From Candidatus Binatia bacterium (GTDB taxonomy: Bacteria; Desulfobacterota; Binatia; UBA9968; JAJDTQ01), in NCBI GenBank assembly GCA_963666515.2, contig OY762897.2:4288001-4352000 (forward strand): a DNA stretch of 64,000 nt, read 5' to 3'. Positions 20,148 through 43,220 of the stretch are shown here, piece after piece; the first letter of the stretch is position 1; each line of letters starts with the position of its first letter. A program made the position numbers and the translations under genes. The notes beneath the pieces were generated by a model. It was not told the origin of the DNA. It saw only the letters and a list, made by a program, of their open reading frames with translations, and searched no databases.

Positions 20148-20396
20148 ATGAGAGAAATCAATGCCTCGGAATTCAAGGCAAAATGCTTGGCCATCCTCGA
20201 TGAAGTCGTACAGACGGGACAGGCGGTTACGATCCTGAAACGCGGCAAGCCGGTGGCCCAGCTCGTCCCGCCGGTCCCCAGGCAGCACCGCTACCCGCAG
20301 CATGCGCTCTTTGGAACGGTGGAGGTGCACGGAGATATCGTGGGGCCGGTCCTGGATGCCGACTTCTGGGAGGCCGAGGCGGGGAAGACGGGGTGA
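20148..20396 (+). CDS. Phd/YefM family antitoxin
   Basis: MREINASEFKAKCLAILDEV...VTILKRGKPVAQLVP. Confidence 0.9.
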   Translation: MREINASEFKAKCLAILDEVVQTGQAVTILKRGKPVAQLVPPVPRQHRYPQHALFGTVEVHGDIVGPVLDADFWEAEAGKTG

Positions 20397-20788
20397 AGGC
20401 GCTCCTCGATACGCACATTCTGATTGACTGGATGGGCGCGGACCGCCATCTTTCGGCGGAGCAGGAAGAAGTCCTTCGACAGGCCGCTCCCGAGAATCCG
20501 CTGTGGGTGTCCGACATCAGCCTGTGGGAGATTGCCACGCTGTACAATCTCAAGCGGCTCTCCTTTCATTTGCCGCTGAGGGAGTGGCTCGAGGCCGCCA
20601 CCGCCCCGCCCCTGGTGCAGCGGGTCGGCATCTCACCCGCGGTTGCCGCGGCCGTGGCCGCCCTTCCCGCGGCCTTTCATCGCGACCCTGCTGACCGGGT
20701 CATCGTCGCCTCGGCGCAGCTTCTCGGCGCAACCGTGCTGACACGCGACGCCCGCATCATCCAATCCCGGCTCGTCCCGACCCTGTAG
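20393..20788 (+). CDS. VapC/PIN toxin
   Basis: LLDTH, SLWEI, HRDPADR, LTRD; overlaps the antitoxin stop. Confidence 0.9.
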   Translation: MKALLDTHILIDWMGADRHLSAEQEEVLRQAAPENPLWVSDISLWEIATLYNLKRLSFHLPLREWLEAATAPPLVQRVGISPAVAAAVAALPAAFHRDPADRVIVASAQLLGATVLTRDARIIQSRLVPTL

Positions 20789-20794: not shown

Positions 20795-23700
20795 TCAGGC
20801 CCGGGTGTCAACGGTCTGCGGGAACCGCGTCCGAATAAACGCGTCAGCGTCCGCCTCCGACAGCCTGACGGTCCCCGGACCGCTCCGCACGAAGAAGTCT
20901 CCGTCCGCCGCCGCTTCAACCCCCTTCCACCTCAACAACACCGGCTCCGGGCTCCGCTGGCAGCTCACCACGCATACGCCTTTGCCCTCCACGATCTGGA
21001 CCTTGGGGTCGATGCAGGTGCCGGCGCGGGGGCCGAGGCCGTTGCGGACGGCCTGGGCCAAGTGGAGCATGAACTTGTCGTCGTTGTCGAGGCGGTCGCG
21101 TTCGATGCCGACCACGGCGCCGTCGTCGGCGACGCCCAGGAGGAGGTCGCCGCCCTCGGTGTTGAGGAACGCGGCGATGGTCTTGAGGGCGGCGTGGGTG
21201 ATCTGCTTGTCGTCCTTGCGGTCTTCTTTGAGGTTCCAGCGGAGCGTGGACTTGAACTCCAGGGTCTTGGACTCGCCCTGCTTGATGAGGTCCTCGGCGC
21301 TTCGGTGGCCGCGCAGGTACTGGTCGAAGAGGAAGTCCTTGACCACGTCGCCGAAGGCGCGGTCGTCGGTGATGCGCTTGTACAGGTCGAAGTTGGAATC
21401 GACGATCTCCTGGATCACCTGCTCGACCTTGTGGTTGAAGGTCAGCCGCACGTTCTCGCGCGTGTTCACCCGCGCCGCGGCGTCCAGGGCGGCGTCGCCG
21501 GCGAGCCGGTCCATCATCCGGCCGAGGGTGACGCGGTGTTCCGGGCCGAGGTTCAGGCCGAAGCGCTCGTTCAGCGCGGCGATGATGCGCGACAGCGTCT
21601 CCAGCTCTTCCGGCGCCGGTCCCGCGGGGTCCTTGGGGCCGATGGGATCGAGCACGCCCGTGCTGCGGTCGAGGCCGATCCTGCCGCTCCCGGTCTGCTG
21701 CACCCGGTACGACTCCATGTCGATGTTCCGCTGCACCTCGCGCGGCAGTTCGTCCCGGTCGGGCGGCAGCAGGCGGCGCAGGTGCCGCGCGAAGACGTAG
21801 AGCTTCTCCAGGTCGGCGTCGGCAAAGGGCAGTATCTGTGAAAGGAAGGCGTAGAGCCGCTCGTAGTCGGTGAGGTGTCCCCGGAATTCCTGGCGCTGGT
21901 CCCGGTGGAGGTTCTGAAAGCGCTCCACCACCGGCGCGAGCGCGGCATGGAGCCGGTCCTGGGAGGCCTTGGCGTTGAACCAGACCCTGGCGAAGCCGTC
22001 CACGTCGCTTTGCGCATAGACCGGAAACTCGCCCAGCCGGGTCTGGATGCCGTAGAGCAGGTTGGGATCGGTGGCTTCCGACAGGAGCGTGGTCTCGTAG
22101 TAGGGCTGGAAGCCGTCCCTGATCGCGTCCGCCTCGTTGGCGAAGTCGAGGACCACCGCGCCGTGTTTCTCGGGGTGCGTGCGATTGAGCCGGGAAAGGG
22201 TCTGCACCGCGTTCACGCCGCCGAGCTTCTTGTCCACGTACATGGTGTGCAGCAGCGGCTGGTCGAAACCGGTCTGGAACTTGTTGGCGACGATCAGGAA
22301 CCGGTAGTCCTGTCCCTCGAAGGTGCTGGCGGTCTGCGTCTCCCGCACCCCGTTCATCCCGGCCTCCGTGTAGGAGGCGCCGCCGTCCCTGACCGTCCCG
22401 GAAAACGCCACGAGCGCCTTGAACGGATAGCCCCGCTCGGCCAGGTATTCGTCCACCGCCAGCTTGTAGCGCACGGCGTGCAGGCGCGAGCGGGTGACGA
22501 TCATGGCCTTGGCCCGGCCGCCGATCCGGTCCTGCACCCCCTCGGCGAAGTGCTCCACCATGATGCGCACCTTCTCGCCGATGGCGTGGGGATGAAGCTC
22601 GACGAAGGACTTCAGCAGGAACTCGGCCTTGCGCTTGTCGTAGCGCGGGTCGTCCGCGATGGTCTTGAGCAGCCGCCACTGGGCTTCGTAGGTCGTATAG
22701 TTTGTCAGCACGTCGAGGATGAACCCCTCCTCGATGGCCTGGCGCATGCTGTACAGGTGGAACGGCGCGAACGAGCCGTCCTCGCGTTCCGTCCCGAAGA
22801 GTTCCAGCGTCTTGTTCTTGGGAGTCGCGGTGAAGGCGAAGGTGGAGACGTTGGGCATGCGCCCGCGCTTCTGCATCTCCGCGAGGATCGTGTTCTCGAT
22901 CTCCTCCTCGGGCGTCTCGGCCTGGGATTCCTCGCTCTCGGCCTCTTCGAGGGACGCCGGCGACAGCACCGCCTTGAGGCTCTTGGTGCTCTCGCCCGAC
23001 TGCGACGAGTGCGCTTCGTCCACGATGAGGCCGAAGCGCTTGCCGGGCAACTCGCCGATCTCCTGGGCGATGACCGGGAACTTCTGGAGCGTGGTGACGA
23101 TGATGGTCTTGCCCGACTCCAGCGCATCCTTGAGCTGGCGCGAGGTGGTGTCGATGTTCTCCACCACCCCCAGGGTCTGCTCGAACTGCCGCACGGTAGC
23201 CTGGAGCTGCCGGTCGAGCACCCTGCGGTCGGTGATGACCACGATGGTGTCGAAGACCCTGCGGTCATCCGGCCCGTGCAGCGTGGAGAGCTGGTGAGCG
23301 AGCCAGGCGATGGTGAAGCTCTTGCCGCTCCCGGCCGAGTGCTGGATGAGGTAGCGGTGTCCGGCCCCCATGACCCGCGCGTCGGTCACGAGCCGCCGCA
23401 CGCAGTCGAGCTGCTGGTAGCGCGGGAAGATGAGGGAGCGCTTGCCGGTCTTGCGGCCCTTGTCGTCTTCCTCCTCGACCTCGTGGACGAACTGGCGCAC
23501 CAGGTCCAGGACGCTGTCCCGCGCCCAGGTCTCTTCCCAGAGATAGCCGGTGGCGTAGCCGTCCCGGGTCGGCGGCACCGGCGGGTTCCCGGCGCCGCCG
23601 AACTTGCCCCGGTTGAAGGGCAGGAAGCGCGTCTTGGCCCCGGCCAGGTGCGTGGTGACATAGACCAGGTCCGTGTCCACCGCGAAGTGGCCGAGGCAAC

Positions 23701-24331
23701 GGCCGTAGGCCAGCAACGGCTCCCCGCGCGGATCGCGGTCGGTCTTGTACTGGTGGATGGCGTCCTCGACGGTCTGGCCGCTGAGCGGGTTCTTGAGTTC
23801 GGCGGTGAAGAGCGGGATGCCGTTCAGGAACAGCACCAAGTCCAGGCTCTTCTCGTTCCTCGTGCTGTACCGGACTTGGCGCGCCACCGCGAAGAAGTTC
23901 GCCGCGTACAGCCGCCGGGTCTCCTGGTTGAGCCCGCTGGCCGGGCGGAAGAAGGCGAGCCGGAACGCGCACCCCATGTCCTTCACGCCGCCCCGCAGGA
24001 CGCTCAGCGCCCCGCGGCGCTCGATCTCGGACGAGAGGCGCTTGAGAAACCGCTCTTTCACCCGCGCGCCGTAGTGCTGGGACAGCTTCTCCCATTCCTT
24101 GGGCTGGGTGGCCAGGATGAAGTCCACGACGTCGGCGGGCAGGAGGCAAAGTTCCCGGTCGTAGTCGTCCGTACGCCGCCGGTGATAGCCGCCGGGCTGC
24201 ATCCAGGGGTCGCCGAAGGATGTGGGTTCCTCGGCGATGGCGGGTTCGCCCGGGACCTCGTCCGGGCCGTGGCGGAGGAGGGCCGCCTCGATGGCGTCCT
24301 CGAAGGCGCGTTCGGAGACGACGGGGGTCAT
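20795..24331 (-). CDS. hsdR: Type I restriction endonuclease subunit R with C-terminal Schlafen/AlbA_2 domain
   Basis: Nuclease DLVLFLNGIPLFTAELKN, QHSAGSGKS, DEAH, FTATP, TGFDQP, QTLSRLNR; C-terminus GESKTLEFKS...AFLNTEGGDLLLGVADDG. Confidence 0.93.
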   Translation of the reverse strand: MTPVVSERAFEDAIEAALLRHGPDEVPGEPAIAEEPTSFGDPWMQPGGYHRRRTDDYDRELCLLPADVVDFILATQPKEWEKLSQHYGARVKERFLKRLSSEIERRGALSVLRGGVKDMGCAFRLAFFRPASGLNQETRRLYAANFFAVARQVRYSTRNEKSLDLVLFLNGIPLFTAELKNPLSGQTVEDAIHQYKTDRDPRGEPLLAYGRCLGHFAVDTDLVYVTTHLAGAKTRFLPFNRGKFGGAGNPPVPPTRDGYATGYLWEETWARDSVLDLVRQFVHEVEEEDDKGRKTGKRSLIFPRYQQLDCVRRLVTDARVMGAGHRYLIQHSAGSGKSFTIAWLAHQLSTLHGPDDRRVFDTIVVITDRRVLDRQLQATVRQFEQTLGVVENIDTTSRQLKDALESGKTIIVTTLQKFPVIAQEIGELPGKRFGLIVDEAHSSQSGESTKSLKAVLSPASLEEAESEESQAETPEEEIENTILAEMQKRGRMPNVSTFAFTATPKNKTLELFGTEREDGSFAPFHLYSMRQAIEEGFILDVLTNYTTYEAQWRLLKTIADDPRYDKRKAEFLLKSFVELHPHAIGEKVRIMVEHFAEGVQDRIGGRAKAMIVTRSRLHAVRYKLAVDEYLAERGYPFKALVAFSGTVRDGGASYTEAGMNGVRETQTASTFEGQDYRFLIVANKFQTGFDQPLLHTMYVDKKLGGVNAVQTLSRLNRTHPEKHGAVVLDFANEADAIRDGFQPYYETTLLSEATDPNLLYGIQTRLGEFPVYAQSDVDGFARVWFNAKASQDRLHAALAPVVERFQNLHRDQRQEFRGHLTDYERLYAFLSQILPFADADLEKLYVFARHLRRLLPPDRDELPREVQRNIDMESYRVQQTGSGRIGLDRSTGVLDPIGPKDPAGPAPEELETLSRIIAALNERFGLNLGPEHRVTLGRMMDRLAGDAALDAAARVNTRENVRLTFNHKVEQVIQEIVDSNFDLYKRITDDRAFGDVVKDFLFDQYLRGHRSAEDLIKQGESKTLEFKSTLRWNLKEDRKDDKQITHAALKTIAAFLNTEGGDLLLGVADDGAVVGIERDRLDNDDKFMLHLAQAVRNGLGPRAGTCIDPKVQIVEGKGVCVVSCQRSPEPVLLRWKGVEAAADGDFFVRSGPGTVRLSEADADAFIRTRFPQTVDTRA

Positions 24332-25683
24332 GGGGCGACTCCGGGTGTTGGGTCCGCTTCGTCCCTGACATCGATCTTGCCGGTGACGGCAGCGGAGATG
24401 AGGGCGGCGCGGAGTTCCTTGAGGCGGTCGATGGCCGCACGGATTTTGTCTATGAGGGCATCAATTCGGGTAGTTTCATGGTCGAGGAAAATGGCGATGG
24501 CTGCTTGTTCTTCTGAGGGAGGGAAGGGGAAGCGGTAGTGCGAGAGCTGGATTGCCGTAAGGTGGTCTATCGTATTCGGATTCCCTCCTGCCACGAAGAC
24601 GCCGCCCTTGGCCAGCGCGTACATGACGTAGTAGAAGAAACGGGGAATATCTTCGTTTGAATGCGGCCTTACACGATGCAGAGCCTTCTGGTAGAAACAA
24701 TCTCCGACATTCCCTTCCCAGATAGCTGTTCTACCGACGTCACCACCTTCGCAAACGAGCAAGTCGCCTGCTTCGAGTTTGTAGCGGTCTCGTTCTTCCG
24801 GACTGAAATCCATTTGGGGTAGGTCGTCCGTGTTCACAGAGTCCCATTGGACGTCAATGTTTCTGACATACTGTCCCAGGTAGTTTCCACTGATCCGTTT
24901 CGCGTCGAGCATCTTGCCGAGCGCCACCTTGTAACGCGTGTACACGGGAGCGACCTTCCAAGCGGCTGGGATCTTTCCTAGCCACTCAACTCCGGAATCC
25001 TTCATCTTGCCGTCAGGGTCGAGCCCCTTGGTGACAGCCCGTGTGATGAGGGCAGTGCGCTTCTCCTGGAGCAACTCGATCAGCCGCTCCTTCTTCGCCA
25101 CCAGCGCATCAATCTTTGCCGTCTCGCGGTCGAGGAAGGTCGCGATGGCGCGCTCTTCCCACAGCGGCGGCAGCGCGATACTTAGGTTCGCGACACTTCC
25201 TACCGTCACTGCGTCATATGTGCTGCCCGTTGCTTGGGACCTGAGGCCATCGCGGAGCACCAATAGCAAGTAGTAGGTGAAGCGCGACTCCAGAACTGAG
25301 GTAGGATGGATTGCACATAGGCCACGACCGATGCGGTAGACCTGATCGGCAATGTTTATCGCACCGACTGGCGCTCGAACGGAGAGTAGAATGTCATCCA
25401 CCTGAGCCGTTTTAGGTGCCCCCTCACACGCGAGTTGGGGCATCGGGTTGATACTTCCGAACTCAGCGTTTCCCTGTAAAAAGGGAAACCTATTCGAAAA
25501 CGTAGATACGACCTCAGACGGAGGAGACTGTCCGGCTATGATGTCTGCTGCGAATTTTAGCCGTTTGACCTCCCAGTGGACTGGTATCTGCCCCAACCAC
25601 TCGACTACGGAGTCCTTGTAGTGTGGGTAAGGTTTCGAGCACTCCACCAAGTTGGGATATTTGTGCTCTTGTTGATGAGTCAC
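24328..25683 (-). CDS. hsdS: Type I R-M specificity subunit S
   Basis: Two KDSxVEWLGxIP conserved regions, PPxxEx/EQ helices, ALITRAVT and ALISAAVTGKID; GTG start at 25683 behind GGAGG. Confidence 0.9.
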   Translation of the reverse strand: MTHQQEHKYPNLVECSKPYPHYKDSVVEWLGQIPVHWEVKRLKFAADIIAGQSPPSEVVSTFSNRFPFLQGNAEFGSINPMPQLACEGAPKTAQVDDILLSVRAPVGAINIADQVYRIGRGLCAIHPTSVLESRFTYYLLLVLRDGLRSQATGSTYDAVTVGSVANLSIALPPLWEERAIATFLDRETAKIDALVAKKERLIELLQEKRTALITRAVTKGLDPDGKMKDSGVEWLGKIPAAWKVAPVYTRYKVALGKMLDAKRISGNYLGQYVRNIDVQWDSVNTDDLPQMDFSPEERDRYKLEAGDLLVCEGGDVGRTAIWEGNVGDCFYQKALHRVRPHSNEDIPRFFYYVMYALAKGGVFVAGGNPNTIDHLTAIQLSHYRFPFPPSEEQAAIAIFLDHETTRIDALIDKIRAAIDRLKELRAALISAAVTGKIDVRDEADPTPGVAP

Positions 25684-26099
25684 GTAGCCTCCGTGGCCGC
25701 GAATTCGATTCAAGAATGGCGATGGACCATGGGGTCTTGTACGGAAGCCGGTTGCCAAGGTCCACCAGCTTGCCAATGCCACTCAAACCGTGAGCCCAGC
25801 ACAATGTTTTCAAGGACCGGCGCTACGAATTGCAGTACTCGGTCTCCAATGACCGAGAATGCCTCGGGCGGTGGTGCCAGGAGCGCTTTCTCTTGTCGAT
25901 AGCGCTTCCAAAGGTCGTCCCGTTTGGTGTCGGAGTAGAATTCTGGGGTCAGGGCATCCGGGGTGTGCGGTGGCCAGACGGTGCCACGCCGCGCAAGACA
26001 TGCCTGGATCGCCTCGTGCATTTCTGCGCCGTTGAAGTCAAACGTTTCCGAGAGCGCCCAGATGTCATGGAAATCCTTCATGCGACTGTTGAGTTTCCC

Positions 26100-27760
26100 C
26101 GTCAGTTGCAAAACGCCCTCTTGAAGAGCCCGCTCAGGCCGTCCTACAAAGGCTCTCCGGTGTCATACGGCAAATAGCTCAGGCTCACCATCTGTGAAGC
26201 TAAGCCACAGCCGCCCGTGAGATAAAATCGAGGGGGGTTGTTGCGACATTTTTTCGAACAAAACGAGGTGAGCTCAAGGATGTGGTCTCCGAAACTGATA
26301 TAATCATCGTTGGTATCATCCCAATACCCGATGAAACGGAGACCACGAAATGAAACTTAGCAGAACCGCGGTTCGAGGTAAAGCCACGCTGGGCATGGAG
26401 GTTCGATTCGAGCCGCAGAAACTGACATCGTATTCGGGGCTCATCCTCTTTCAGTGCTTCTTTTCCCACCTGGGTCTCAAGGAGCGGCTGGGGCGGTGCT
26501 TCCGCCACCTGAAAGCCAATCCGATCTACGGTCACCACGTCGTGTTGCTGCTGCTGGTGGTGCATCTCATCATCGGACACCGACAGTTGCAAGACTTGGC
26601 GTACTACCGGGATGATGAACTGGTCCGGCGGTTGCTTGGGCTGAAACGCTTGCCGGACGTGTCTACCGTGAGCCGCTCGCTGAAGAGTGCCGACGCGTGC
26701 AGCGTCGACAACGTCCGCGCCGAGTCGAGAACGGTGGTCATCGAGCGCCTGGTGGCCGAAGGTTTCGCGACTATCACCCTGGACTTCGACGGCTCGGTCT
26801 TGAGCACCGGGCGCCACGCCGAGGGCACCGCGGTGGGGTTCAACAAGAAGAAGAAAGGGGCGCGCAGCTACTACCCCCTGTTTTGCACCGTGGCCCAGAC
26901 CGACCAGGTGCTCGACGTGCACCATCGGCCGGGAAACGTCCATGACTCCAAGGGCGCCGATGCCTTCATCCAGGGCTGTGTGTGCACCGTGCGCGCAAGC
27001 CTGCCCCGGGCCAGGATCGAGGTGCGCATGGACAGCGCCTTCTTCAGCAGGGATATCGTCGACCGGCTTCACTCCCTGGGTGTCACCTTCACCGTCTCGG
27101 TGCCCTTCGAGCGCTTGGCCGAACTGAAGGGGATGATCGAAGGCAGACAACGATGGCGGCCCATGGCCAATGGACTCGGCTACTTCGAGACCCGCTGGAA
27201 GCCCAAGTCCTGGAACACCCGCTATCGCTTCGTCTTCATCAGAAAACCCGTCCGATACCAGGACAAGGAGGAAATCCAACTCGACCTCTTCAAGCCGGTC
27301 TCCCATGGGTACGAGTTCAAGGTCATCGTCACCAACAAGAGAATCCGCCCACGCAACGTGGCGCTCTTCCACGAAGGACGGGGATCCCAAGAGGGTATCT
27401 TCGCCGAGTTGAAGTCCCACTGCCAAATGGGCTACGTGCCCGTCAAAACACGCGTCGGGAACCAGTTGTACATGTTCGCCAGCATCCTCGCTCACAACCT
27501 CACCCGCGAACTCCAGATGCGAATCCACCCCCGTGAGCGTTCCACCACAGCCAAGCGCCCCGCCCTGTGGTGCTTCCGCGAAATCGGAACCCTGCGCCGT
27601 ACCCTCATTCAACGAGCCGGACGTATCATTCGCCCCGCCGGCAAGCTCATCCTGTCGATGAATACCAATCCGAATCTCGAAGCAGAACTGCGTCACGCCC
27701 TCGCAGCCCTCACGCCCCGCGCCTGACTCTTAAATTCAGCCGTGGTTTTTGCAACAATCG
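26100..27760 (+). mobile_element. IS1380-family insertion sequence
   Basis: Imperfect TIR cgtcagttgcaaaa / ttttgcaacaatcg; direct repeat agtttccc at 26092-26099 and 27761-27768. Confidence 0.85.
26350..27726 (+). CDS. IS1380-family DDE transposase
   Basis: TLDFDGS, SYYPL, RPGN, VRMDSAF, RGSQEGIFAELK. Confidence 0.9.
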   Translation: MKLSRTAVRGKATLGMEVRFEPQKLTSYSGLILFQCFFSHLGLKERLGRCFRHLKANPIYGHHVVLLLLVVHLIIGHRQLQDLAYYRDDELVRRLLGLKRLPDVSTVSRSLKSADACSVDNVRAESRTVVIERLVAEGFATITLDFDGSVLSTGRHAEGTAVGFNKKKKGARSYYPLFCTVAQTDQVLDVHHRPGNVHDSKGADAFIQGCVCTVRASLPRARIEVRMDSAFFSRDIVDRLHSLGVTFTVSVPFERLAELKGMIEGRQRWRPMANGLGYFETRWKPKSWNTRYRFVFIRKPVRYQDKEEIQLDLFKPVSHGYEFKVIVTNKRIRPRNVALFHEGRGSQEGIFAELKSHCQMGYVPVKTRVGNQLYMFASILAHNLTRELQMRIHPRERSTTAKRPALWCFREIGTLRRTLIQRAGRIIRPAGKLILSMNTNPNLEAELRHALAALTPRA

Positions 27761-28325
27761 AGTTTCCCCAGTCGCACCATGGCATCGATCTTTTCGGCAA
27801 TGCTCGCAACCAGTGGATATACTTGGAGGGAAGGTGCGGGCAGGCCGTCGAGCAGCGTCTGCATTCTGGCTTCTCGCGGGCCAGGTGTGATGGCATCGCC
27901 GAAGCCGAAGTCGATCTGGGTGGGGATTCGTGCTTGTCCGAGGCGGCAGACCAGCTTGACGCGCTGGCCCTGATAGGGTTGTCCTGGGCGGATGGACGAA
28001 ACCCGTATGCTATTCAGGTCAAAGATCAAACCATCCTCGGCACAGGTGACTGTGCAGATGGCAGCCACAGTCTCTCGAATGGACGTCTCATCGCTGCGAC
28101 AGAAGGCCAACAGATCGACGTCACGGGTGCCGCGATAGGGGTCCTCCATCCAGACGGACAGTAGAGTGGCTCCCTTCAGGATGCACCGGTCACGCACCGG
28201 CGACACGCCGAGGCGGTAAAGGAACCTCTCGCAGGCGTACCGGGCAAGGAGGAGTTGGAACTCCTCACCACTTTTTTTCGACTTGTTGTACAAGCGGGCT
28301 CTGATCGATGCCGCAACGTCGTTGC

Positions 28326-28931
28326 TCATTCGACGCCGACCTCCAGGGCGGTGCTCAGACGGCGCGAAGGTAGTTCCTCAAGTGTTCGGAACAGCGAATC
28401 CACCGTAACCTTTTGTTCCCGCAGGGCGTCGCGCAGGGCTTCAAGCGCGGTCTCTCGCCCGATCAGGTGTTCAAATCGGAAACAATCGACGATCGTGCGA
28501 GCCGGAGAGGTGATGCGTGCCGGAACCCCCTCGAACACGGTGTTCTGAACCCCATAGGTCCAGGCAGCGCCGCTGAACCGGACGAGGCGGGTACGGAACT
28601 GCGGCAGCCTGGGAGGTCTCGCCTTGTGGTGAATGGCGATCCAGACTTGGTGTGGAAGCTGGGTGCCGATCTCGTAGATGTTGAGTGCCGTAAGCAGGCA
28701 AACGACGGCGTTGGGCACACGAGCACAGACCGCGGCTACGGTAGCGTATTCGGTCGGTTCAGCGCTGGCGAGCCTGTAAAGTCCGCGTTGGATCCGCTCG
28801 ACGGCCCCCGCCTTGACCAGTTGGTCGAGTTGGTCGAAGGTAATCCCCAAGTCGGCGATCTGGCTCGGACGGAAGAAGACACCGAGGCCAGCCTTCTGAA
28901 GGCGGTCTTTGTCCAGGTCAATGATGGTCAT
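28326..28931 (-). CDS. AbiEi-family type IV antitoxin / regulator
   Basis: RIQRGLY wHTH, CLLTAL, ITSPARTIVDCFR; translationally coupled to abiEii. Confidence 0.88.
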   Translation of the reverse strand: MTIIDLDKDRLQKAGLGVFFRPSQIADLGITFDQLDQLVKAGAVERIQRGLYRLASAEPTEYATVAAVCARVPNAVVCLLTALNIYEIGTQLPHQVWIAIHHKARPPRLPQFRTRLVRFSGAAWTYGVQNTVFEGVPARITSPARTIVDCFRFEHLIGRETALEALRDALREQKVTVDSLFRTLEELPSRRLSTALEVGVE

Positions 28932-28941
28932 CGTCTAAAAA

Positions 28942-28968
28942 GTCGGCATTTTATTTCAAATTGCCGAC
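28942..28968. promoter_or_regulatory. Putative AbiEi operator (GTCGGCA-N13-TGCCGAC)
   Basis: Inverted repeat 10 bp upstream of abiEi; same arms recur at 32129-32154. Confidence 0.65.
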
Positions 28969-29090
28969 ATTATACAGGCATGCGGTAGGGTCTTGCAACC
29001 GAAATCTGACGCGGAGGGCGACGAGCGTTTTGTGCGAAGGGCAACTACAGAGCCATCCCATAGGATGGATGCTAAAGAATGTCAGGGGAT

Positions 29091-29600
29091 TTACAGCATT
29101 TCATGACGCTTTTCGACCAGGAATCGTGCGGCGTTCGACTCCATCCACTGACGCAACAGAGCCGCGTTGTATTGGTACTCCCCGAGCTTCGCGCCGGTCA
29201 TCTTGTCGAACCGATCGATGAAGTCTTTCCGAACGCCTATTTTGATATGACTTGGCATGTCGCGGGTCGCTGGCGCGATATAGGCGTCAACGATAGCACC
29301 AGCACCGAGGTAGTCTACGGCTGCGGCGGTAGCGTCGCTCTCATCGGTCGAATCCCGTGGCGGTTGCGTCTTGAGCGCTCGCCCAAAGAGCCTCCGGACA
29401 AGTGCCCAAGGCCCCGTCAGGACTATAGGATAGCTCGTTATTAGAATCGTCAGAAAGAAAAGAGCCGCGCCAGTGAACCAAATCCCTGCTGGTACCTCTG
29501 GCCACATTTGTTCCGCACCTCGTTCTGCAAAAAGGCTGGTGAAGAACCCCAGGAAAGCCCGAATATGCTTCTCCTTCTCCATCCGGTCATCGTAGCACAC
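29091..29600 (-). CDS. Hypothetical membrane-anchored protein
   Basis: 169-aa ORF with a hydrophobic segment; no recognised motif. Confidence 0.45.
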   Translation of the reverse strand: MCYDDRMEKEKHIRAFLGFFTSLFAERGAEQMWPEVPAGIWFTGAALFFLTILITSYPIVLTGPWALVRRLFGRALKTQPPRDSTDESDATAAAVDYLGAGAIVDAYIAPATRDMPSHIKIGVRKDFIDRFDKMTGAKLGEYQYNAALLRQWMESNAARFLVEKRHEML

Positions 29601-29603
29601 ACG

Positions 29604-30220
29604 CTATTTGGGCACTATTGCAAGGGCTTGTACGTCTCCGCGCCTACGATCACAAAGACTGAACCAGTTCAGGAGTGCTTTGGCGTGCGGGCTAGCGCCC
29701 TCAACGCGCGCTGGATCAGTCCGTGTCAGCAACGCGAAGGAGACGCTGCCCTTGGAATACTGCACCTCGCCGTCGCCTTGCGAAGGGCGTCGAGCACGGT
29801 TCCCTTGGGTACGTGCCCCAACTCGGCCCATTTCCCAAGAGCATTTTCCGCGAAGCGTGAGCCGAAGTATTGCCGCAACGCATCGTGATCGGCCAGGAAC
29901 CAAGTTTCCATGACTTGGACCATCAGGAAGGCATCTTCACCAGCGCCGACGGGCTTGTTCCAGCCGTCGTGGATTGAAGGTGTTGCCAAGCTGAGTGACC
30001 AGCCTTGACCGGGCTTTCGCTGTCTACGAGGAGAAGAGGAACAACACCTGTACCCCGTCCCGCGGCATCTCTCTAAAACGGTTGAACGTCTGTGTCCGTG
30101 AGCCGCCTCGCACCACTTTGGGCATGCGGCCGGCAAGTCCAGCCCGTCCAACCCTTACGAAAATTGCGCGTCCAGGCGCCGGTTGTCTCCTCCGCCCTCG
30201 ATGTAGAGCGTTGCTGTCAC
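29604..30220 (-). pseudogene. DUF4276-like protein, frameshifted
   Basis: GTG start overlaps the ATPase stop; reads VTATLYIEGGGD, extra base in the A run at 30160-30163, then pieces in other frames (FLMVQVMETWFLAD, YSKG). Confidence 0.7.
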
Positions 30221-31461
30221 CAACGGTTTCCTCCCAACTGGCCGGAACTCCAGAGATTGCCGAGTGTGTAGTCCGGCGGCCACTTGGTGAGATCATCCTT
30301 GTCAAGCCGTCTCATCTCGGTTTGTCCGTCGTGCTTTTCGCAGACCACGACGCTCTCCGGTGTGTCGGTCAAGGCGTCTACAAGCACGTCCGAGTGGGTC
30401 GTCACGATCAGTTGACTGCGTTTGGATGCCGCGACCAGCAGGTCGGTCAACGTCGGCAACAAGTCCGGGTGGAGCCCGAGCTCCGGCTCCTCGATCACGA
30501 TCAGCGGCGGCGGTTCAGGATGCAGGAGGATCGCCAACAGACAAAGGTATCGGAGTGTCCCGTCCGACAGCCGCGTGACGGGTATCTCCCGGTTGTCGGA
30601 TTCCTCCAGGAACAGGGTCACCGTACCCCCTACCACCGGGCACTTGATGTCTACGATCCCGTCGTAGAGCTTTCTCAAAGCTGCAATGAGTTGCCTCTTG
30701 CTGTCGCTGGGAAAGTTGGACAGCACGGGTGCCAAGTTGGTGCATCCTTCGTTGAGGAAATCGGAGCGCTCGTGGGCGCTCGCCGGTTGGCGCAAGCTCG
30801 TGGCAAGGCCGAAGGACCAACGCCGGTAGAGGCGGATGCGTTCATACTCGCCTTTCAGATGCCAAAGGGCCGGGTATTCGGGAGTTGCAGCCCAGGCCAG
30901 GAACGACTTTTCCGGTTCAACCTCGCTCGCGAAGTCCACGGCGCCTGGGCGAAGTCGTGAAGCAACACGCGGGGTTGACCACTCACCGGGGCGTTGTTTT
31001 CGCTCGGCGTCCTTTCGTCGCGCCTCGGCGGTTGTTTTTGCGATCTCCGAGGCAGTCGCCGCATCCTGAGGAGGGCGGTAGTAGGACAAGCCGGCGCGTT
31101 CGTCGGTTTGGGTCCCCGACGGCTCGACCCGCTCGTTCGTGACCTCCGAACGGCCGTTTCGTCCGGCAATCGTAAGGGAATGCTTCAGGGTGCCGGAGGG
31201 CGGATAGCCGACGGTGGTTTCCATTGTGATGGATGACGGCGCATTGGGACCGCTCCACAACCACTCCCGAAATCCGCCGAGACGTGAGATCGATTCCGTA
31301 ATGCTGCGCGGTGCGGTTTGCAGGAGTGCAACTGCCTCCAGGAAGTTGGACTTCCCCGATCCGTTCGGTCCGATGAGGACGTTCAGCGGTTCCAAGGGCA
31401 AATCGACGCCCACAGGTCCGAATGACAGGAGACCGGCGACGTTCAATCTATGGATCAGCAT
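30217..31461 (-). CDS. AAA_21-type ABC ATPase (defence-associated)
   Basis: GPNGSGKSN, LSDGTLR, IEEPELGLHP, TTHS. Confidence 0.88.
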   Translation of the reverse strand: MLIHRLNVAGLLSFGPVGVDLPLEPLNVLIGPNGSGKSNFLEAVALLQTAPRSITESISRLGGFREWLWSGPNAPSSITMETTVGYPPSGTLKHSLTIAGRNGRSEVTNERVEPSGTQTDERAGLSYYRPPQDAATASEIAKTTAEARRKDAERKQRPGEWSTPRVASRLRPGAVDFASEVEPEKSFLAWAATPEYPALWHLKGEYERIRLYRRWSFGLATSLRQPASAHERSDFLNEGCTNLAPVLSNFPSDSKRQLIAALRKLYDGIVDIKCPVVGGTVTLFLEESDNREIPVTRLSDGTLRYLCLLAILLHPEPPPLIVIEEPELGLHPDLLPTLTDLLVAASKRSQLIVTTHSDVLVDALTDTPESVVVCEKHDGQTEMRRLDKDDLTKWPPDYTLGNLWSSGQLGGNRW

Positions 31462-31504
31462 TTGGCTCTATTCTGTCCGCACCTTTACGATTGCACCTGG
31501 GGCA

Positions 31505-32110
31505 TCATCTCGCCAGTGCGTAAAGGTATGGGTCAATGACCGTCTGCACGCGGCAGACTTCGGCAGCGCGCACGATTTCACTCACAGTCGTGATGTTTGA
31601 GCGAACGGCATCGTGTAGCGCCTCCATGGCGATGTCGAGACCGAACTTGTTTCTGTAGCGAAAACAGTCCACCACCGTTCGGGCCGGTGAGGTGATTCGG
31701 AACGGCACGCCCAGCGCCGACCTGTGCATCACGCCGTATTCGAGCATCGCACCAGAGAAGCGAAGGATGCGAACCTGGGCGGGAGGATGGGTGGGCTTGC
31801 GGGCCTTGCGGTCGATGGCGATCCAGACTTGATGAGGCAGTTGGGTCCCGATGTCATGAAAGAGAAGCGCCGTCAGCAGACACATGATGGCGTTGGGGAC
31901 GGCTGCCGCTACCATCGCGAGGGTCTCGAGCTCCGTTGGTTCGACCTCGGAGAGTCTGTAAAGCCCGTGCCCGAAGTTCTCGACGAGCCCCCTGGAAACC
32001 AAGTTCTGGAGTTGGCGATGCGAGACTCCCAGCGATGCAAGGTCTCGCGGCCGGAAGAATGTGCCGAGACCCGCTTCCCGTAGCTGGTTGGTATCGAGTT
32101 GATCGGCCAT
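31505..32110 (-). CDS. Second AbiEi-family antitoxin/regulator, no adjacent abiEii
   Basis: Paralogous to 28326-28931 (AGLGxFFRP, GLYRL, IGTQLPHQVWIAI, ITSPARTVVDCFR). Confidence 0.85.
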   Translation of the reverse strand: MADQLDTNQLREAGLGTFFRPRDLASLGVSHRQLQNLVSRGLVENFGHGLYRLSEVEPTELETLAMVAAAVPNAIMCLLTALLFHDIGTQLPHQVWIAIDRKARKPTHPPAQVRILRFSGAMLEYGVMHRSALGVPFRITSPARTVVDCFRYRNKFGLDIAMEALHDAVRSNITTVSEIVRAAEVCRVQTVIDPYLYALAR

Positions 32111-32128
32111 CTGCGTAGGATAACAGAT

Positions 32129-32154
32129 GTCGGCATAGCCTGCTAACTGCCGAC
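32129..32154. promoter_or_regulatory. Putative AbiEi operator (GTCGGCA-N12-TGCCGAC)
   Basis: Same inverted-repeat arms as upstream of the first abiEi. Confidence 0.65.
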
Positions 32155-32199
32155 AGTTGCTATTAGCGGTATCGCCGCAAAATCCGCTTCACAGGAGTT

Positions 32200-32698
32200 G
32201 AGGGCAAGGGGGCTGATTTCGGGGCACAGGGGGTGCAAGGCGAACAACGCCATTGCGCCGGAGGTTCGAGCGGAGATGCTGGCGCTGGTGCGGGAGCGTT
32301 ACGAGGATTTCTCACCGACCCTGGCAACGGAGAAGCTCCGGGAAGTGTACGGCCATCGGGTGTAGGCGGAGACCCTGTGCATGTGGATGGTCGAAGAGGG
32401 GCTGTGGTGGACACAGAGGGGCCGGGGGATGCGGGTGCATCAGAGCCGCCCCCGGCGCCAAGCACTGGACGAGTTGGTGCAGATCGACGGCTCTCCGCAC
32501 CGGTGGTTCGAGGACCGGGGGCCTTCCTGCACCCTGATCGTGTTCATCGACGACGCCACCAGTCAGCTCATGGCCCTGCGCTTCGTCGACAGTGCCCGGA
32601 CGCTTCAGCACAAGCACCCCAAACACAAACCCTCCCCAGACGACTCCTGGAACCGCTGGAAACGCCTTCTCCCCCACAAACGTCCCGGCTCCCCCTGA
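32200..32698 (+). pseudogene. ISNCY/IS1202-like (rve) transposase remnant
   Basis: RERYEDFSPTLATEKL, internal TAG, LVQIDGSPHRWFEDRG, VFIDDATS, then an abrupt jump to a C-terminal-like HKP; limits approximate. Confidence 0.7.
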
Positions 32699-34193: not shown

Positions 34194-34194
34194 T

Positions 34195-40947: not shown

Positions 40948-43122
40948 TCAGTGTCGTAGTTGACCGGCCCGCATGTCCTTCAACATCTCCAGGATGTCAT
41001 CCTCGATAGCCTGGATGTCCGCCTCGATCTCCGCGATGGGCCGGGGCGCCTTGTAGCGGTAGAAGTAGCGGTTGAAGTTGATCTCGTAGCCGACGAGTCC
41101 GACCTTGGCGTCCCGGTGGTCCCGTTTCGACGTGTCGATCCAGGCGTCCGGGACATGGGGCTTGACCTCGTGCTCGAAGAACGCCCGGACGCTGGCGGGC
41201 ACGCCATCGGCGTCCGCGGGGTCCTCTCCCTCCGGGAGCGGCACGCGCTCGGTGTCCCGAAGCTCCGGGTCGGGTTCCGGCCTGCCGTCCGCGTCGCGAC
41301 AGATATCCGCCTTCTCGTCGCGTTCGGCGAGGGCCGTGAGGATTGCCTTCTTCACCGGCGCCGGCAGCTTGATGCCGGCCTTGGTGGTGGCCGTCGTGAG
41401 TGCCGCAAGAAAGGCCTCGCGGTCCTTGCAGATGGTATCGGGCATCCGCTTGAGCATGGTGCGGATGGCTTCCTGCCGCGCGCGGCCCTCGGCCTCCTCC
41501 CTGGCTCCGGCGTCGCCGCGCCTCCTCGATTTCGCCAGGTTCTGAAAGCCCTTCTGCTCGTCCAGACGGGCGATGCGCTCGGGGCTTGCGTGGAAGTTGA
41601 GCCGTAGCGGGCGCTCGACGGTGATCTTGCGGAAGCCGAACCGGGTGGTGGGAAAGATGCGGCTGACGGTCACTTCCTCTTCGTTCCCGTCCTCCGTGCG
41701 CGTGCGTGTCTCGCCGTCCTTGTGACCGGACCGGAGACTCAGCACTTCCGCGGCCATTTCCGGCGGTATCTCGCGCCGCTTGTCGCCGAGGCTCCGGCGC
41801 ATGGGCGACCAGAGGGAAGTGGCGTCGATGAGCTGCACCTTTCCCCGTCGTTCGGGCGTCTTGCGGTTGGTCAGGAGCCACACGTAGGTGGCGATGCCCG
41901 TGTTGTAGAAGAGCTGCTCGGGCAGGGCGATGAGCGCCTCCAGCAGGTCGTTCTCCAGGATGAAGCGCCGGATCTCGCTCTCGCCGCTGCCGGCGTCGCC
42001 GGTAAACAGGGGCGAGCCGTTCATGATGATGGCGATGCGCGCGCCGCCCTGGTCCGGCGGCCTCGCGTGCGCGAGCATGTGCAGCAGGAACAGGGTCTGC
42101 CCGTCGCTGATACGCGGAAGGCCCGGCCCGAAGCGTCCGCCCGGACCGCGCTGGTGCTCCGTCTCGACCGTCTCCTGGTCCCGTTTCCAGTCCTTGCCGT
42201 AAGGCGGGTTGGCGATCAGGTAGTCGAAGGTCTGGCCGGGGTGGCGGTCGTTGGACAGGGTGCTTCCGAAGGCGATGTTCTCGGCGTCGCGGCCCGTCGG
42301 GTCCTTCATGAAGATGTCCGACTTGGACACCGCCCAGGTCTCCGGGTTCACTTCCTGTCCGAAAAGGTGGATGTCGGCCGCGGCGTTGATGGCGGGTCGA
42401 AGCAGGTCCGTCCCGGTCGCGCCGCCGTTTCGCCGCACTCCGACCGTGACGTGTTCCTTGGCGATCATCAGCATGCCGCCGGAGCCGCAGCAGGGGTCGT
42501 ACACGCTGCGGATGGCGCCCGGAGCGGCGATGAGGCTCTCGTCTCCGGCCAGCATGAGGTCCACCATCAGGTGGACGACGTCGCGGGGCGTGAAGTGCTC
42601 GCCGGGGTTCTCGTCCAGCGCCTCGTTGAACCGTCGGATCAACTCCTCGAAGATCGTCCCCATGGTCGGGTTGTCGATCCGGTCCGGGTGCAGGTCCACG
42701 TTCTTGAAGCGCTCCAGCACCTGGAACAGCAGGCCGGCTTCTTCGAGCTTGCTGATGGTGTTGTCGAAGTCGAAGTGCTCCAGCACGCTGCGCATGTTCC
42801 CGCTGAAGCCGGCGATGTAGTTCCGAAGGTTCGCCGCCACCTGCGGCGCGTCGCCCAGCAGCTTGTCGAAGTCGTAGCGCGAGGTGTTGTAGAAGGCGAA
42901 GCCCGATGCCGTGCGCAGCGCCCCGTCGAGGTCGTGCAGCCCGCGCTGGCTCAACTCCGCCTGGCGCCTGAGCACCGCCTCCTTGGTGTCCGCCAGCACG
43001 CAGTCGAGCCGGCGCAGCACCGTCAGCGGCAGGATGACATCCTGGTACTTCCCGCGCTTGAAGCTGTCCCGGATCAGGTCCGCGACGCTCCAGAGAAAGC
43101 TGACGATCTCGCTGTGGTTCAT
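40948..43122 (-). CDS. hsdM: Type I R-M methyltransferase subunit M
   Basis: GEHFTPRDVV, YDPCCGSGGML, ANPPY, LFYNTGIATY, GYEINFNRYFY. Confidence 0.95.
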   Translation of the reverse strand: MNHSEIVSFLWSVADLIRDSFKRGKYQDVILPLTVLRRLDCVLADTKEAVLRRQAELSQRGLHDLDGALRTASGFAFYNTSRYDFDKLLGDAPQVAANLRNYIAGFSGNMRSVLEHFDFDNTISKLEEAGLLFQVLERFKNVDLHPDRIDNPTMGTIFEELIRRFNEALDENPGEHFTPRDVVHLMVDLMLAGDESLIAAPGAIRSVYDPCCGSGGMLMIAKEHVTVGVRRNGGATGTDLLRPAINAAADIHLFGQEVNPETWAVSKSDIFMKDPTGRDAENIAFGSTLSNDRHPGQTFDYLIANPPYGKDWKRDQETVETEHQRGPGGRFGPGLPRISDGQTLFLLHMLAHARPPDQGGARIAIIMNGSPLFTGDAGSGESEIRRFILENDLLEALIALPEQLFYNTGIATYVWLLTNRKTPERRGKVQLIDATSLWSPMRRSLGDKRREIPPEMAAEVLSLRSGHKDGETRTRTEDGNEEEVTVSRIFPTTRFGFRKITVERPLRLNFHASPERIARLDEQKGFQNLAKSRRRGDAGAREEAEGRARQEAIRTMLKRMPDTICKDREAFLAALTTATTKAGIKLPAPVKKAILTALAERDEKADICRDADGRPEPDPELRDTERVPLPEGEDPADADGVPASVRAFFEHEVKPHVPDAWIDTSKRDHRDAKVGLVGYEINFNRYFYRYKAPRPIAEIEADIQAIEDDILEMLKDMRAGQLRH

Positions 43123-43154
43123 GAGGCTACTGACACAAGGGCCGGGGCCAAGGC

Positions 43155-43220
43155 TCAAGCCTCTCGGTCAGCGGCGAATGCCAAGCAGGCGTGGATGTCG
43201 GCACGCTCGAGATCCGCGTC
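43155..43220 (-). pseudogene. C-terminal remnant of a DUF433-like antitoxin
   Basis: Reads DADLERADIHACLAFAADREA*, matching the DUF433 C-terminal pattern; no 5' part present. Confidence 0.5.

Follow-up and report, generated by a model that had tools for sequence, protein, structure and literature searches.

A conserved Schlafen/AlbA_2 domain at the C-terminus of a type I restriction subunit R: a candidate RNase effector within a restriction-modification enzyme

Type I restriction-modification (R-M) enzymes are, by textbook, DNA-only defences. In the 64,000 nucleotides of Candidatus Binatia bacterium DNA analysed here (the window), the gene for a restriction subunit R continues in frame into a Schlafen/AlbA_2 domain, which raises the question whether such an enzyme may also act on RNA. 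On balance, we regard it as probable that the locus encodes a functional type I R-M system, the R subunit of which would contain a built-in, catalytically competent Schlafen RNase effector with the restriction complex as its sensor. This reading draws on sequence, structural models and analogy.

The fusion is encoded by a single open reading frame, the stop codon of which was verified in the sequence. It comprises the following features.

20795..24331, minus strand: hsdR-Slfn, a single ORF of 1178 aa; type I restriction subunit R extended at its C-terminus by a Schlafen/AlbA_2 domain
23639..23905, minus strand: N-terminal nuclease region of HsdR, PD-(D/E)xK type, residues 143-231 (Pfam HSDR_N, E = 7.1e-17)
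22148..23425, minus strand: SF2 translocase motor, residues 303-728 (Pfam SWI2_SNF2, E = 3.3e-26, ResIII, DEAD and T1R_D3-like)
21302..22084, minus strand: C-terminal helical region of HsdR, residues 750-1010, helices in predicted models
20861..21274, minus strand: Schlafen/AlbA_2 domain, residues 1020-1157, one alpha/beta lobe of ~140 residues (Pfam SLFN_AlbA_2, PF04326)
21251..21274, minus strand: predicted catalytic motif, E1020-x4-E1025-x-K1027

An earlier note on this DNA had described a complete HsdR of ~1010 aa followed by an in-frame tail. All three peptides quoted there were found in the translation and the Pfam matches agree: a complete HsdR extends from residue 1 to ~1010, and a C-terminal extension of 168 residues holds the Schlafen domain. 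The segment 20795-21310 (minus strand) corresponds to residues 1008-1178 plus the stop codon. The strand was left unstated in that note; the rest of its description was accurate. G+C content of the Schlafen segment is 0.67 compared to 0.65-0.70 in the remaining hsdR, and because of this lack of a discontinuity a recent read-through is disfavoured.

The HsdR part matches the PADLOC model REase_I (E = 1.5e-32) and, in the PDB, HsdR of EcoR124I (E = 1.6e-13). With 201.2 bits against 284.55, the score for TIGR00348 (hsdR) is below the curated cut-off. Nevertheless, the two other matches still place the protein, as judged from sequence, in a divergent branch of the HsdR family. Residues D164, E178 and K180 of the nuclease as well as the motor motifs Walker A (G334-S-G-K337) and DEAH (D438-E-A-H441, residues 438-441) are invariant in a 53-sequence alignment. 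Within the motor, SWI2_SNF2, ResIII and DEAD match at 303-548 and T1R_D3-like at 674-728. The Pfam scan assigned no family to residues 750-1010, and the end of this helical region coincides with the end of orthologues that lack the Schlafen domain. An AlphaFold model of the whole protein, based on the 53-sequence alignment, was poor (pLDDT 59.2, pTM 0.33), and the placement of the domain relative to HsdR is unreadable from it.

The tail itself had been assigned to the AlbA_2/Schlafen core with an acidic motif (here E1020, E1025 and K1027), and an HMM search, a count of HsdR+AlbA_2 architectures and a structure prediction had been proposed as checks. All of them supported the assignment. The match to PF04326 scored 67.2 bits (gathering cut-off 25.3; E = 2.4e-18) and spans positions 1-117 of the 118 in the profile, which is far beyond chance. 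The AF2 model of the domain reached a pLDDT of 95.2 and a pTM of 0.90, and all 33 Foldseek matches in the PDB with E ≤ 1e-3 were AlbA_2, SAMD9 or Schlafen structures, including 3lmm (E = 7.8e-7), SAMD9 (7ksp and 9o0d), SLFN13 (5yd0), SLFN11 (7zep), SLFN14, SLFN5 and SLFN12. Sequence identity of the domain to the SLFNs in these matches is just 16-21%. In the domain model a linker of ~3 residues lies between the last HsdR helix and the Schlafen domain. None of the PADLOC models covered the Schlafen part.

In full, the motif reads E1020-S-K-T-L-E1025-F-K1027. Motif counts were taken by eye from two alignments of related loci: the window retains E-x4-E-x-K, as do 53 of the 54 loci with a complete domain, and E1025 is invariant throughout a wider clade of 98 sequences. 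D1069 of the GVxDDG stretch is D in 53 of the 54 complete loci and E in the remaining one. In mammalian Schlafens the third acidic residue of the metal-binding triad is D252 of SLFN11 and D248 of SLFN13. In a phmmer alignment the first D of the SLFN 'GVDD' aligns with A1068, and the conserved D1069 follows one position later. Because the third acidic residue of SLFN11/13 is thus aligned with A1068, one before D1069, the metal triad may be incomplete; six loci have D at both positions. The domain further contains a cluster of H1090, C1106, C1120 and C1124. The stretch A1053-A-F-L-N1057-T-E-G-G-D-L-L-L-G-V, with N1057 invariant in the 98-sequence clade, resembles the SAFAN box plus Gly/hydrophobic core of Schlafen proteins, the 'SAFAN' Schlafen box being named in the accessible part of the SLFN-pAgo preprint (bioRxiv 10.64898/2026.05.29.728809). 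According to the available text of two further papers, mutants in the E-x4-(E/D)-x-K motif of RorSlfn5 and CbCash lose tRNA cleavage (PMC13056530; PMC13462974).

A type I R-M operon around the complete HsdR was also confirmed, with hsdS overlapping hsdR and hsdM upstream on the same strand. The neighbouring genes are as follows.

24328..25782, minus strand: hsdS, two target-recognition domains (Pfam Methylase_S, 2 stretches)
25710..28931, minus strand: abiEi + abiEii, with abiEi at 28326-28931 (Pfam AbiEi_4)
27736-28329 and 25710-26111, minus strand: abiEii split in two, N part and C part (AbiEii profile positions 1-150 and 154-229)
26350-27726, plus strand: insertion sequence transposase (DDE_Tnp_1_4), interrupts abiEii
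40948..43158, minus strand: hsdM (Pfam HsdM_N + N6_Mtase; PADLOC MTase_I, 863 bits)

The stop codon of hsdS and the start codon of hsdR overlap as ATGA, and the two genes are predicted to be translationally coupled. PADLOC Specificity_I matches residues 50-478 of the listed hsdS frame (E = 2.3e-110), the true start of which is probably near residue 46. The coding sequence of hsdM is intact; it is located ~15 kb upstream of hsdS and is 64-92% identical to the hsdM genes beside hsdR-Slfn in related loci. Where related loci extend far enough, M, S and R mostly lie on one strand within ~6-10 kb. All 8 related loci inspected encode AbiEi and AbiEii between hsdM and hsdR, and in operons of this family the AbiE pair is what usually fills the gap between hsdM and hsdS. 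Inverted repeats flanking the insertion sequence were not found. Downstream of hsdR, the window and four related loci all differ, without a conserved gene or immunity gene; therefore control of the Schlafen domain must be inside the protein or complex. An Rfam scan gave 0 matches, tRNA genes numbered 0, and promoter- and terminator-like sites occurred at no more than chance level.

Among proteins of HsdR-like length (647-2062 aa), 1616 protein clusters match the domain. PF04326 together with T1R_D3-like is present in 120 of the 120 clusters listed, 94 of which are 1132-1315 aa long; hence the architecture is not a singleton. Of the 70 best species-level loci, which span more than 15 phyla, 58 contain the domain. 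Among the carriers, Pelomicrobium sp. G1 (L025) is in culture. Across phyla it is 66-85% identical to that of the window, compared to 68-86% for the HsdR core, with a mean column identity of 80%; in sequence, its conservation equals that of the HsdR core. The fusion therefore represents a large conserved family that is horizontally widespread and modular by presence and absence. A search of PLSDB plasmids yielded 7 AlbA_2 matches, all of them weak, and ≥80% of the query was covered by 0 of 72,556 records; a search of phage genomes was without match, and matches in BFVD were just to giant-virus and poxvirus Schlafen-like proteins.

Natural variants help to delimit the role of the domain. In ten of the 70 loci the HsdR orthologue lacks it, the reading frame stopping 4-30 residues past the conserved ...FDQYLRxHR. 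Their ends fall precisely on the domain boundary, so that the domain is an add-on outside the HsdR fold; as these orthologues show, the R-M system can do without it. By identities to L021 alone, the domain-less forms appear to make up more than one tight clade. A split form, i.e. a domain-less HsdR with a separate Schlafen gene nearby, is rejected, as it occurs in 0 of the 12 loci lacking a Schlafen match (fetched flanks, E ≤ 1e-5). In a Nitrospiraceae MAG (L024) the residues A, A and T replace E, E and K while domain and gene are otherwise intact, which suggests an additional, non-catalytic value of the Schlafen fold. Three relatives (P0180, P0130, P0165) carry a LexA-like S24 peptidase C-terminal to the Schlafen domain, and in the two sequences inspected (P0180 and P0130) this peptidase has the site AAAG and the serine motif GRSMEP; this tail may be a hint of regulation. 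In another relative (P0272) SNF2 and Helicase_C are fused to a domain of the same clade.

According to the favoured reading, the HsdR part would act on unmodified DNA, which is recognised via M2S, translocated and cut, while the Schlafen part would most likely be a latent metal-dependent tRNA/RNA endonuclease. This RNase arm would add translation shutoff (abortive infection) to restriction, with the restriction complex itself as the sensor. From characterised relatives we infer RNase activity, a tRNA target and pairing with a second Schlafen lobe. The earlier note had considered a PrrC-like fail-safe or a nucleic-acid-binding module; a nuclease role is likelier than it could know, because recent papers, as far as their accessible text goes, describe prokaryotic Schlafen domains as defence tRNases activated by phage cues (PMC13056530; PMC13462974).

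Two triggers can be envisaged. The RNase might be switched on when restriction engages foreign DNA, e.g. when two HsdR motors meet at a stall or collision, or, in a further form, by a DNA-break/ssDNA signal as hinted by the LexA-like S24 tail of some relatives. Alternatively, loss of the methylase core or its inhibition by phage anti-restriction proteins might release the nuclease, following the logic of PrrC. We lean slightly towards the first, since restriction activity as a trigger fits the scant evidence at least as well as the PrrC logic. As a tentative and rather unlikely refinement, the C-terminal Schlafen lobes of the two HsdR subunits would be kept apart in a resting R2M2S1 complex and pair into an active nuclease upon motor stall or collision or a DNA-break/ssDNA signal.

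The strongest alternative is that the AlbA_2 domain is a non-catalytic binding or assembly module, which would help HsdR to hold DNA or RNA or regulate methylase assembly and would cut no RNA. DNA forms named for this function are ends, ssDNA and extruded loops. The AlbA_2 domain of SAMD9 (the 7ksp match) binds DNA, and the NCBI names of the two named relatives listed (one full-length, one a 690-aa piece) are 'RNA-binding domain-containing protein' and 'putative DNA binding domain-containing protein'. Furthermore, the C-terminal helical region, to which the domain is tethered by just ~3 residues, contacts the methylase in EcoR124I HsdR, and L024 retains the domain without E, E and K. Several mammalian SLFNs are also without catalytic residues, as given in the accessible text of PMC13462974. 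Nevertheless, a motif retained by 53 of 54 loci and by the wider clade is more than pure binding would demand, and all prokaryotic Schlafen domains tested to date in the available parts of three reports are nucleases (PMC13056530; PMC13462974; bioRxiv 10.64898/2026.05.29.728809). We consider a purely binding function to be unlikely, although a serious competitor.

It is still less probable that the domain is a second DNase, acting on ssDNA or the translocated duplex to reinforce restriction without any RNase activity. The partner is a DNA translocase, so that local substrate concentration would favour DNA, and the title of PDB entry 7cux describes SLFN5-N as 'involved in ssRNA cleaving and DNA binding'. 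However, the PD-(D/E)xK DNase of HsdR is already intact, RorSlfn5 is reported as inactive on DNA in the accessible text of PMC13056530, and tRNA is cut by CbCash, RzAgo and SAMD9 (9o0d being titled 'tRNase domain') according to the sources at hand. An artefact (read-through, assembly error or decaying pseudogene tail), which a few damaged relatives might suggest (L023 frameshifted within the domain, L018 frameshifted, L040 and L049 truncated), is refuted for practical purposes by an identical in-frame junction that recurs across many phyla (58 of 70 loci) and in each of the 120 clusters listed, by the 80% mean column identity of the domain and by the uniform G+C content.

If the predicted RNase is active, restriction and abortive infection would be wired into one enzyme that is widespread in environmental bacteria (carriers in at least 58 species-level genomes from more than 15 phyla, with protein clusters exceeding a thousand). 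If the paired-lobe arrangement also holds, each restriction event would entail tRNA cleavage, whether local or global, and the protein would amount to a bacterial equivalent of SLFN11 built on an SF2 motor and to a covalent successor of the EcoprrI-PrrC pair. Nature supplies built-in controls: orthologues that lack the domain and one variant in which the motif is dead. Such systems can be overlooked in surveys of R-M and defence because of these NCBI names and because TIGR00348 misses the protein. Prokaryotic Schlafen nucleases have been recognised as tRNase effectors no earlier than 2025-26. According to the Cash authors, over half of the Schlafen homologues associated with defence have a link to R-M or other nucleases; in the accessible text they speculate that these sense structures arising from DNA cleavage, and leave open by what means the many R-M-linked Schlafen proteins are activated (PMC13462974). 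The HsdR-Schlafen fusion provides a clean model for this activation.

Compared to canonical HsdR (EcoR124I, PDB 2w00), the window protein shares the PD-(D/E)xK nuclease, the SF2 motor, the helical region at the C-terminus of HsdR and the grouping with hsdM and hsdS in one operon, but belongs to a divergent subfamily and carries the Schlafen-bearing extension of 168 residues. The locus also differs in the coupling of hsdS and hsdR, with hsdM upstream and the AbiE pair in between.

Among prokaryotic Schlafen effectors, as described in the parts of the sources at hand, RorSlfn5 combines the domain with an Ig-like sensor (PMC13056530), CbCash combines it with Csx15 and is activated by cA4 (PMC13462974), and the SLFN-pAgo RzAgo builds a two-lobed site through dimerisation (bioRxiv 10.64898/2026.05.29.728809). 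The window domain resembles them in Pfam family, fold, single lobe, E-x4-(E/D)-x-K motif, its AAFLN box in place of 'SAFAN', location in a defence island and a larger fused module as a possible sensor. In contrast to them, it is C-terminal and its partner is the HsdR motor/nuclease, itself an effector. An HsdR fusion is absent from the accessible text of these three reports, while Fig. 1d of the preprint (103,533 proteins) may show it. The 17 supplementary files of PMC13056530 contain 0 rows with HsdR Pfam families besides one fragment of 516 aa with T1R_D3-like and AlbA_2, labelled 'P-loop_NTPase.pSlfn'.

EcoprrI-PrrC, and likewise RloC, is an anticodon nuclease whose activity a type I R-M enzyme holds in check; PrrC consists of an ABC-type NTPase with its own ribonuclease module and is activated when Stp of phage T4 inhibits EcoprrI, according to the available parts of the literature (PMC1484252; PMC2610378; PMC3458546). 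By analogy, the window protein would physically link a type I R-M enzyme with a tRNA-directed nuclease, here a predicted one, and PrrC serves as the conceptual model of translation shutoff. Whereas PrrC is a separate protein with a fold unrelated to Schlafen, the putative nuclease domain in the window is covalently part of HsdR, and its sole NTPase switch would be the HsdR motor. Pfam and NCBIfam detected HsdR families and AlbA_2 alone, with neither PrrC homology nor an ABC-NTPase with a PrrC ribonuclease.

In SLFN11, a Schlafen tRNase with a helicase, tRNA cleavage is activated by ssDNA binding, as stated in the accessible Discussion of PMC13056530. Group III Schlafens of this kind thus also unite a Schlafen nuclease and an ATP-dependent nucleic-acid motor in one polypeptide, and by analogy DNA status may gate RNA cleavage in the window protein. 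The SLFN11 helicase is SF1-type, whereas the motor in the window is an SF2 HsdR with its own DNase, the order of the modules is reversed with the motor N-terminal, and one Schlafen lobe is present instead of two.

The hsdR-Slfn gene codes for an HsdR core, up to about residue 1010, that is followed in the same frame by a C-terminal Schlafen/AlbA_2 domain. It comprises the following parts:

20795-24331, minus strand: hsdR-Slfn, an ORF of 1178 aa, with 20795-21310 as its 3′ end
Residues 143-231: HSDR_N nuclease region (Pfam)
Residues 303-548: SF2 motor, matched by SWI2_SNF2, ResIII and DEAD (Pfam)
Residues 674-728: T1R_D3-like domain (Pfam)
Residues 1020-1157: full-length SLFN_AlbA_2 domain (Pfam, 67.2 bits vs. 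a cut-off of 25.3, E 2.4e-18)

The Pfam match bears out the arrangement read in the earlier note, HsdR followed in frame by an AlbA_2 domain, and every peptide cited there was found in the ORF translation, where the acidic motif reads E1020-S-K-T-L-E1025-F-K1027. The curated hsdR model TIGR00348 scored 201 bits, under its cut-off of 284.55. Nevertheless, the matches to PADLOC type I REase models (E 1.5e-32) and to EcoR124I HsdR in the PDB (E 1.6e-13) still identify the HsdR core. An alignment of 53 sequences shows no change in the nuclease residues D164, E178 and K180, in Walker A (G334-K337) or in the DEAH box (438-441). Among the relatives listed only the full-length P0005 and P0066, a 690-aa piece, are named by NCBI, as 'putative DNA binding domain-containing protein' or 'RNA-binding domain-containing protein'. 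Such names, together with the miss by the curated hsdR model, conceal the restriction subunit in standard annotation.

The HsdR-Schlafen fusion is real, conserved and widespread. The Schlafen part alone, searched against proteins of HsdR-like length (647-2062 aa; E ≤1e-3), matched 1616 of 3239 candidate clusters. PF04326 and a T1R_D3-like domain occurred together in all 120 of the clusters listed, of which 94 are 1132-1315 aa long and 26 are shorter pieces; their Schlafen domains share 77-95% identity with that of the window. Scanning one genome per GTDB species gave at least 613 matching stretches, of which at least 602 were confirmed as relatives. The best 70 of these loci (60-86% identity) belong to Gemmatimonadota, Acidobacteriota, Spirochaetia, Planctomycetota, Thermodesulfobacteriota, Nitrospirota, Myxococcota, Rhodothermales, Actinomycetota, several proteobacterial classes and candidate phyla, a spread that indicates horizontal transfer. 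By local tblastn, 58 of the best 70 loci have the Schlafen part immediately behind the core; 54 of these are complete and four are damaged or at a contig end (L010, L023, L049, L052). A singleton read-through, which the earlier note had named as an outcome that would speak against it, is thus at odds with these 58 loci and the 120 listed clusters. Proteins of 1168 aa with HsdR families also form a 53-member cluster in the ESM Atlas, under the name 'RNA-binding domain-containing protein'. The fusion was absent from PLSDB plasmids and GenBank phages, both of which were searched.

By local tblastn the Schlafen part was undetected in the other 12 of the best 70 loci. In ten of them (L003, L021, L028, L031, L034, L035, L055, L056, L059, L061) the HsdR ORF stops 4-30 residues past the conserved ...FDQYLRxHR, while L039 runs off its contig and L040 is truncated. 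A split form, with a Schlafen-less HsdR and a separate Schlafen gene, was seen in the fetched flanks of none of the 12. Over the last 300 core residues L021 shares 89-92% identity with the Schlafen-less Chloroflexota loci L031, L034 and L035, and 71-78% with L061, L055 and L059. L028, L056 and L003 (67, 64 and 44%) are no nearer to L021 than Schlafen-bearing loci (61-73%), so that the domain was probably gained or lost more than once.

The Schlafen/AlbA_2 identity was also upheld by structure prediction. The model of the last 181 residues, built on a 98-sequence alignment (pLDDT 95.2, pTM 0.90), is a compact alpha/beta lobe that begins about three residues past the last HsdR helix. All 33 Foldseek matches in the PDB at E ≤1e-3 were AlbA_2/Schlafen folds, including DIP2311 (3lmm), the SAMD9 DNA-binding/tRNase domain (7ksp, 9o0d), a RecG-related N-domain and the Schlafens SLFN13, SLFN11, SLFN14, SLFN5 and SLFN12.

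Residue conservation was followed in the window and in the 54 loci whose domain is complete. D1062 is invariant, and D1069 (GVxDDG) is retained in 53 of the 54 loci, being E in L018. The third catalytic Asp of mammalian Schlafens aligns with A1068, one residue ahead of D1069. A wider clade of 98 sequences, reaching down to about 40% identity, shows no variation at E1025, N1057, G1066, D1079 or R1149 and at least 90% conservation at E1020 and K1027. In the 55 aligned domains H1090, C1120 and C1124 never vary and C1106 is present in at least 90%; in the wider clade the conservation of H1090 and C1124 still reaches at least 90%. The four residues (window 20958-21064) may form a metal site. The domain and the enzyme core are equally conserved (66-85% and 68-86% identity to the window, respectively) and share the same G+C content. 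Judged by sequence, purifying selection acts on the domain together with the rest of the hsdR-Slfn protein.

E1020, E1025 and K1027 are retained in 53 of the 54 loci. The exception, L024 (Nitrospiraceae MAG; 13058-13537), has A, A and T in their place, with the rest of the domain conserved and its 1222-codon frame open. This natural motif-dead variant keeps two other readings of the domain in play, as a non-catalytic binding module or as a second DNase, and so does the AlbA_2 domain of SAMD9, which binds DNA. Both readings are retained here.

An HMMER scan of 1.84 billion representatives for relatives of the domain returned 6230 proteins at E ≤1e-3 and 193 at E ≤1e-30, and AlbA_2 was present in all 20 representatives picked for a Pfam scan. 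The nearest relatives are fragments of the HsdR-Schlafen fusion. The closest non-HsdR relatives (P0166, P0173-P0178 and many others; 45-50% identity) measure about 400-440 aa; their Schlafen domain is C-terminal, and an unannotated N-terminal part resembles PDB 2r6i (Atu1473; E 1.1e-5). Pfam also revealed SNF2+Helicase_C+AlbA_2 (P0272), TPR- or PLD-like fusions, HsdR+AlbA_2+Peptidase_S24 (P0180, 1329 aa) and AlbA_2+S24 fragments (P0130, P0165). The S24 tails of P0180 and P0130, the two sequences read, have an AAAG stretch ahead and a GRSMEP motif within; in LexA and UmuD, the Ala-Gly site of self-cleavage resembles the former and the catalytic serine motif the latter. As a lead, this suggests that S24-bearing relatives may self-cleave on a DNA-damage (RecA/ssDNA) signal.

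The surroundings of hsdR-Slfn contain the following genes:

40948-43158, same strand as hsdS and hsdR, about 15 kb upstream: hsdM
39780-40877 and 32963-33677: ORFs resembling, by eye, HigB/RelE-type toxin-antitoxin pairs, without family match
38731-39219: staphylococcal-nuclease-like ORF
36518-37537: IS1595 transposase
34698-36389, minus strand: island ORF of 563 aa with normal protein composition
31505-32110: second AbiEi_4 gene
30217-31461: HEC-01-like AAA_21 ATPase
29726-30151: partner of this ATPase
28326-28931: abiEi, intact antitoxin gene
27736-28329: abiEii, N part (profile 1-150)
26350-27726, plus strand: DDE_Tnp_1_4 transposase
25710-26111: abiEii, C part (profile 154-229)
24328-25782: hsdS, its end in ATGA overlap with the hsdR start
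20393-20788, plus strand: PIN-domain toxin, converging on hsdR and ending 6 nt from its stop
20148-20396, plus strand: Phd-family antitoxin, converging on hsdR

About 12 kb of lower-G+C DNA (window 28900-40950) part hsdM from abiEi-hsdS-hsdR, and the hsdM-hsdS interval (G+C 0.58-0.62 vs. 0.65-0.70) is a defence and toxin-antitoxin island; the window flanks are ordinary chromosomal genes. Most related loci of sufficient length carry hsdM and hsdR on one strand, within about 6-10 kb of each other. The toxin gene abiEii, which immediately precedes hsdS, is broken in two by the DDE insertion sequence, around which no terminal inverted repeats were found. The 563-aa ORF had no match in Pfam, NCBIfam or PADLOC, and the plus-strand ORF overlapping it looks like an antisense artefact. 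AbiEi and AbiEii lie between hsdM and hsdR in all eight loci examined; because two of these are Schlafen-less, AbiE belongs to the operon family and not to the Schlafen domain. The G+C content of hsdS (24380-25820; 0.53-0.59), far below that of the adjoining hsdR (0.65-0.70), fits an exchange of specificity genes between hosts.

The gene junctions of the operon act as landing sites for further defence genes. In L021, a Schlafen-less Dehalococcoidia locus, two ThsB-like TIR genes lie between abiEii and hsdS (7105-8665), and the same gaps hold GmrSD and Fic in L014 or TnpB and HicB in L012. The Phd/PIN position next to the hsdR stop is taken elsewhere by Doc/Fic and MazE (L013) or a transposase (L002). 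L001, from a Spirochaetia MAG, has AbiEii and HsdS domains within a single 739-aa open frame (7546-9765); about 8 kb past its hsdR-Slfn, on the downstream side, there is a second, distant AlbA_2-like stretch (21895-22359; 35% identity). Another small islet of low G+C in the window (49517-52030) carries an HTH_3 plus Peptidase_M78 (ImmA/IrrE-like) gene and a T5orf172-domain gene.

Judged from its genes, the type I R-M system of the window is complete, and its R subunit carries at its C-terminus a conserved Schlafen lobe that has the catalytic motif. By analogy with its relatives the lobe would be a metal-dependent RNase, probably a tRNase, and latent, becoming active only together with a second lobe. 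No conserved gene able to serve as antitoxin was found downstream of hsdR in the window and four further loci, and control of the nuclease would therefore be intrinsic. Restriction activity might license it: the two HsdR motors of one complex, or colliding complexes, would join their C-terminal lobes on unmodified DNA, or a DNA-break signal would serve as the cue. Alternatively, the holoenzyme would silence the lobe, and anti-restriction proteins hitting the methylase core would free it, as with PrrC. The S24 variants, together with speculation in PMC13462974, point to licensing by restriction. Restriction-coupled tRNA cleavage, the boldest of the tenable readings, is put forward tentatively, and we hold it to be rather unlikely.

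According to PMC13056530, which defines the E-x4-(E/D)-x-K motif, 5,930 prokaryotic Schlafen proteins fall into 55 architectures, and RorSlfn5 is a Mn2+-dependent tRNase triggered by a T5 tail-assembly chaperone. Its 17 supplementary tables have no row with PF04313, PF04851, PF18766 or PF00270; they include one 516-aa T1R_D3-like+AlbA_2 fragment, filed as 'P-loop_NTPase.pSlfn'. PMC13462974 describes tRNA cleavage by Cash as activated by cA4, lists R-M-linked Schlafen clusters, some of them direct methyltransferase fusions, and places more than half of the defence-linked Schlafen homologues beside R-M or other nucleases, with activation unknown. A full-text literature search found no description of an HsdR-Schlafen fusion, although figures and the bioRxiv/PMC13462974 supplements could mention one; for the HsdR partner and the topology we did not find an earlier description. 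In the SLFN-pAgo preprint a single-lobe bacterial Schlafen domain is activated by dimerising into a two-lobed arrangement, and a Schlafen-ATPase module is fused to a type I S subunit. PMC12839542 calls Schlafen RNases backup suicidal effectors of BREX loci, and the PrrC and RloC abstracts describe the classical anticodon nuclease linked to type I R-M, as well as a tRNase that responds to DNA breaks. The system is of a known kind, that of Schlafen effectors fused to sensing modules and of tRNases coupled to type I R-M.
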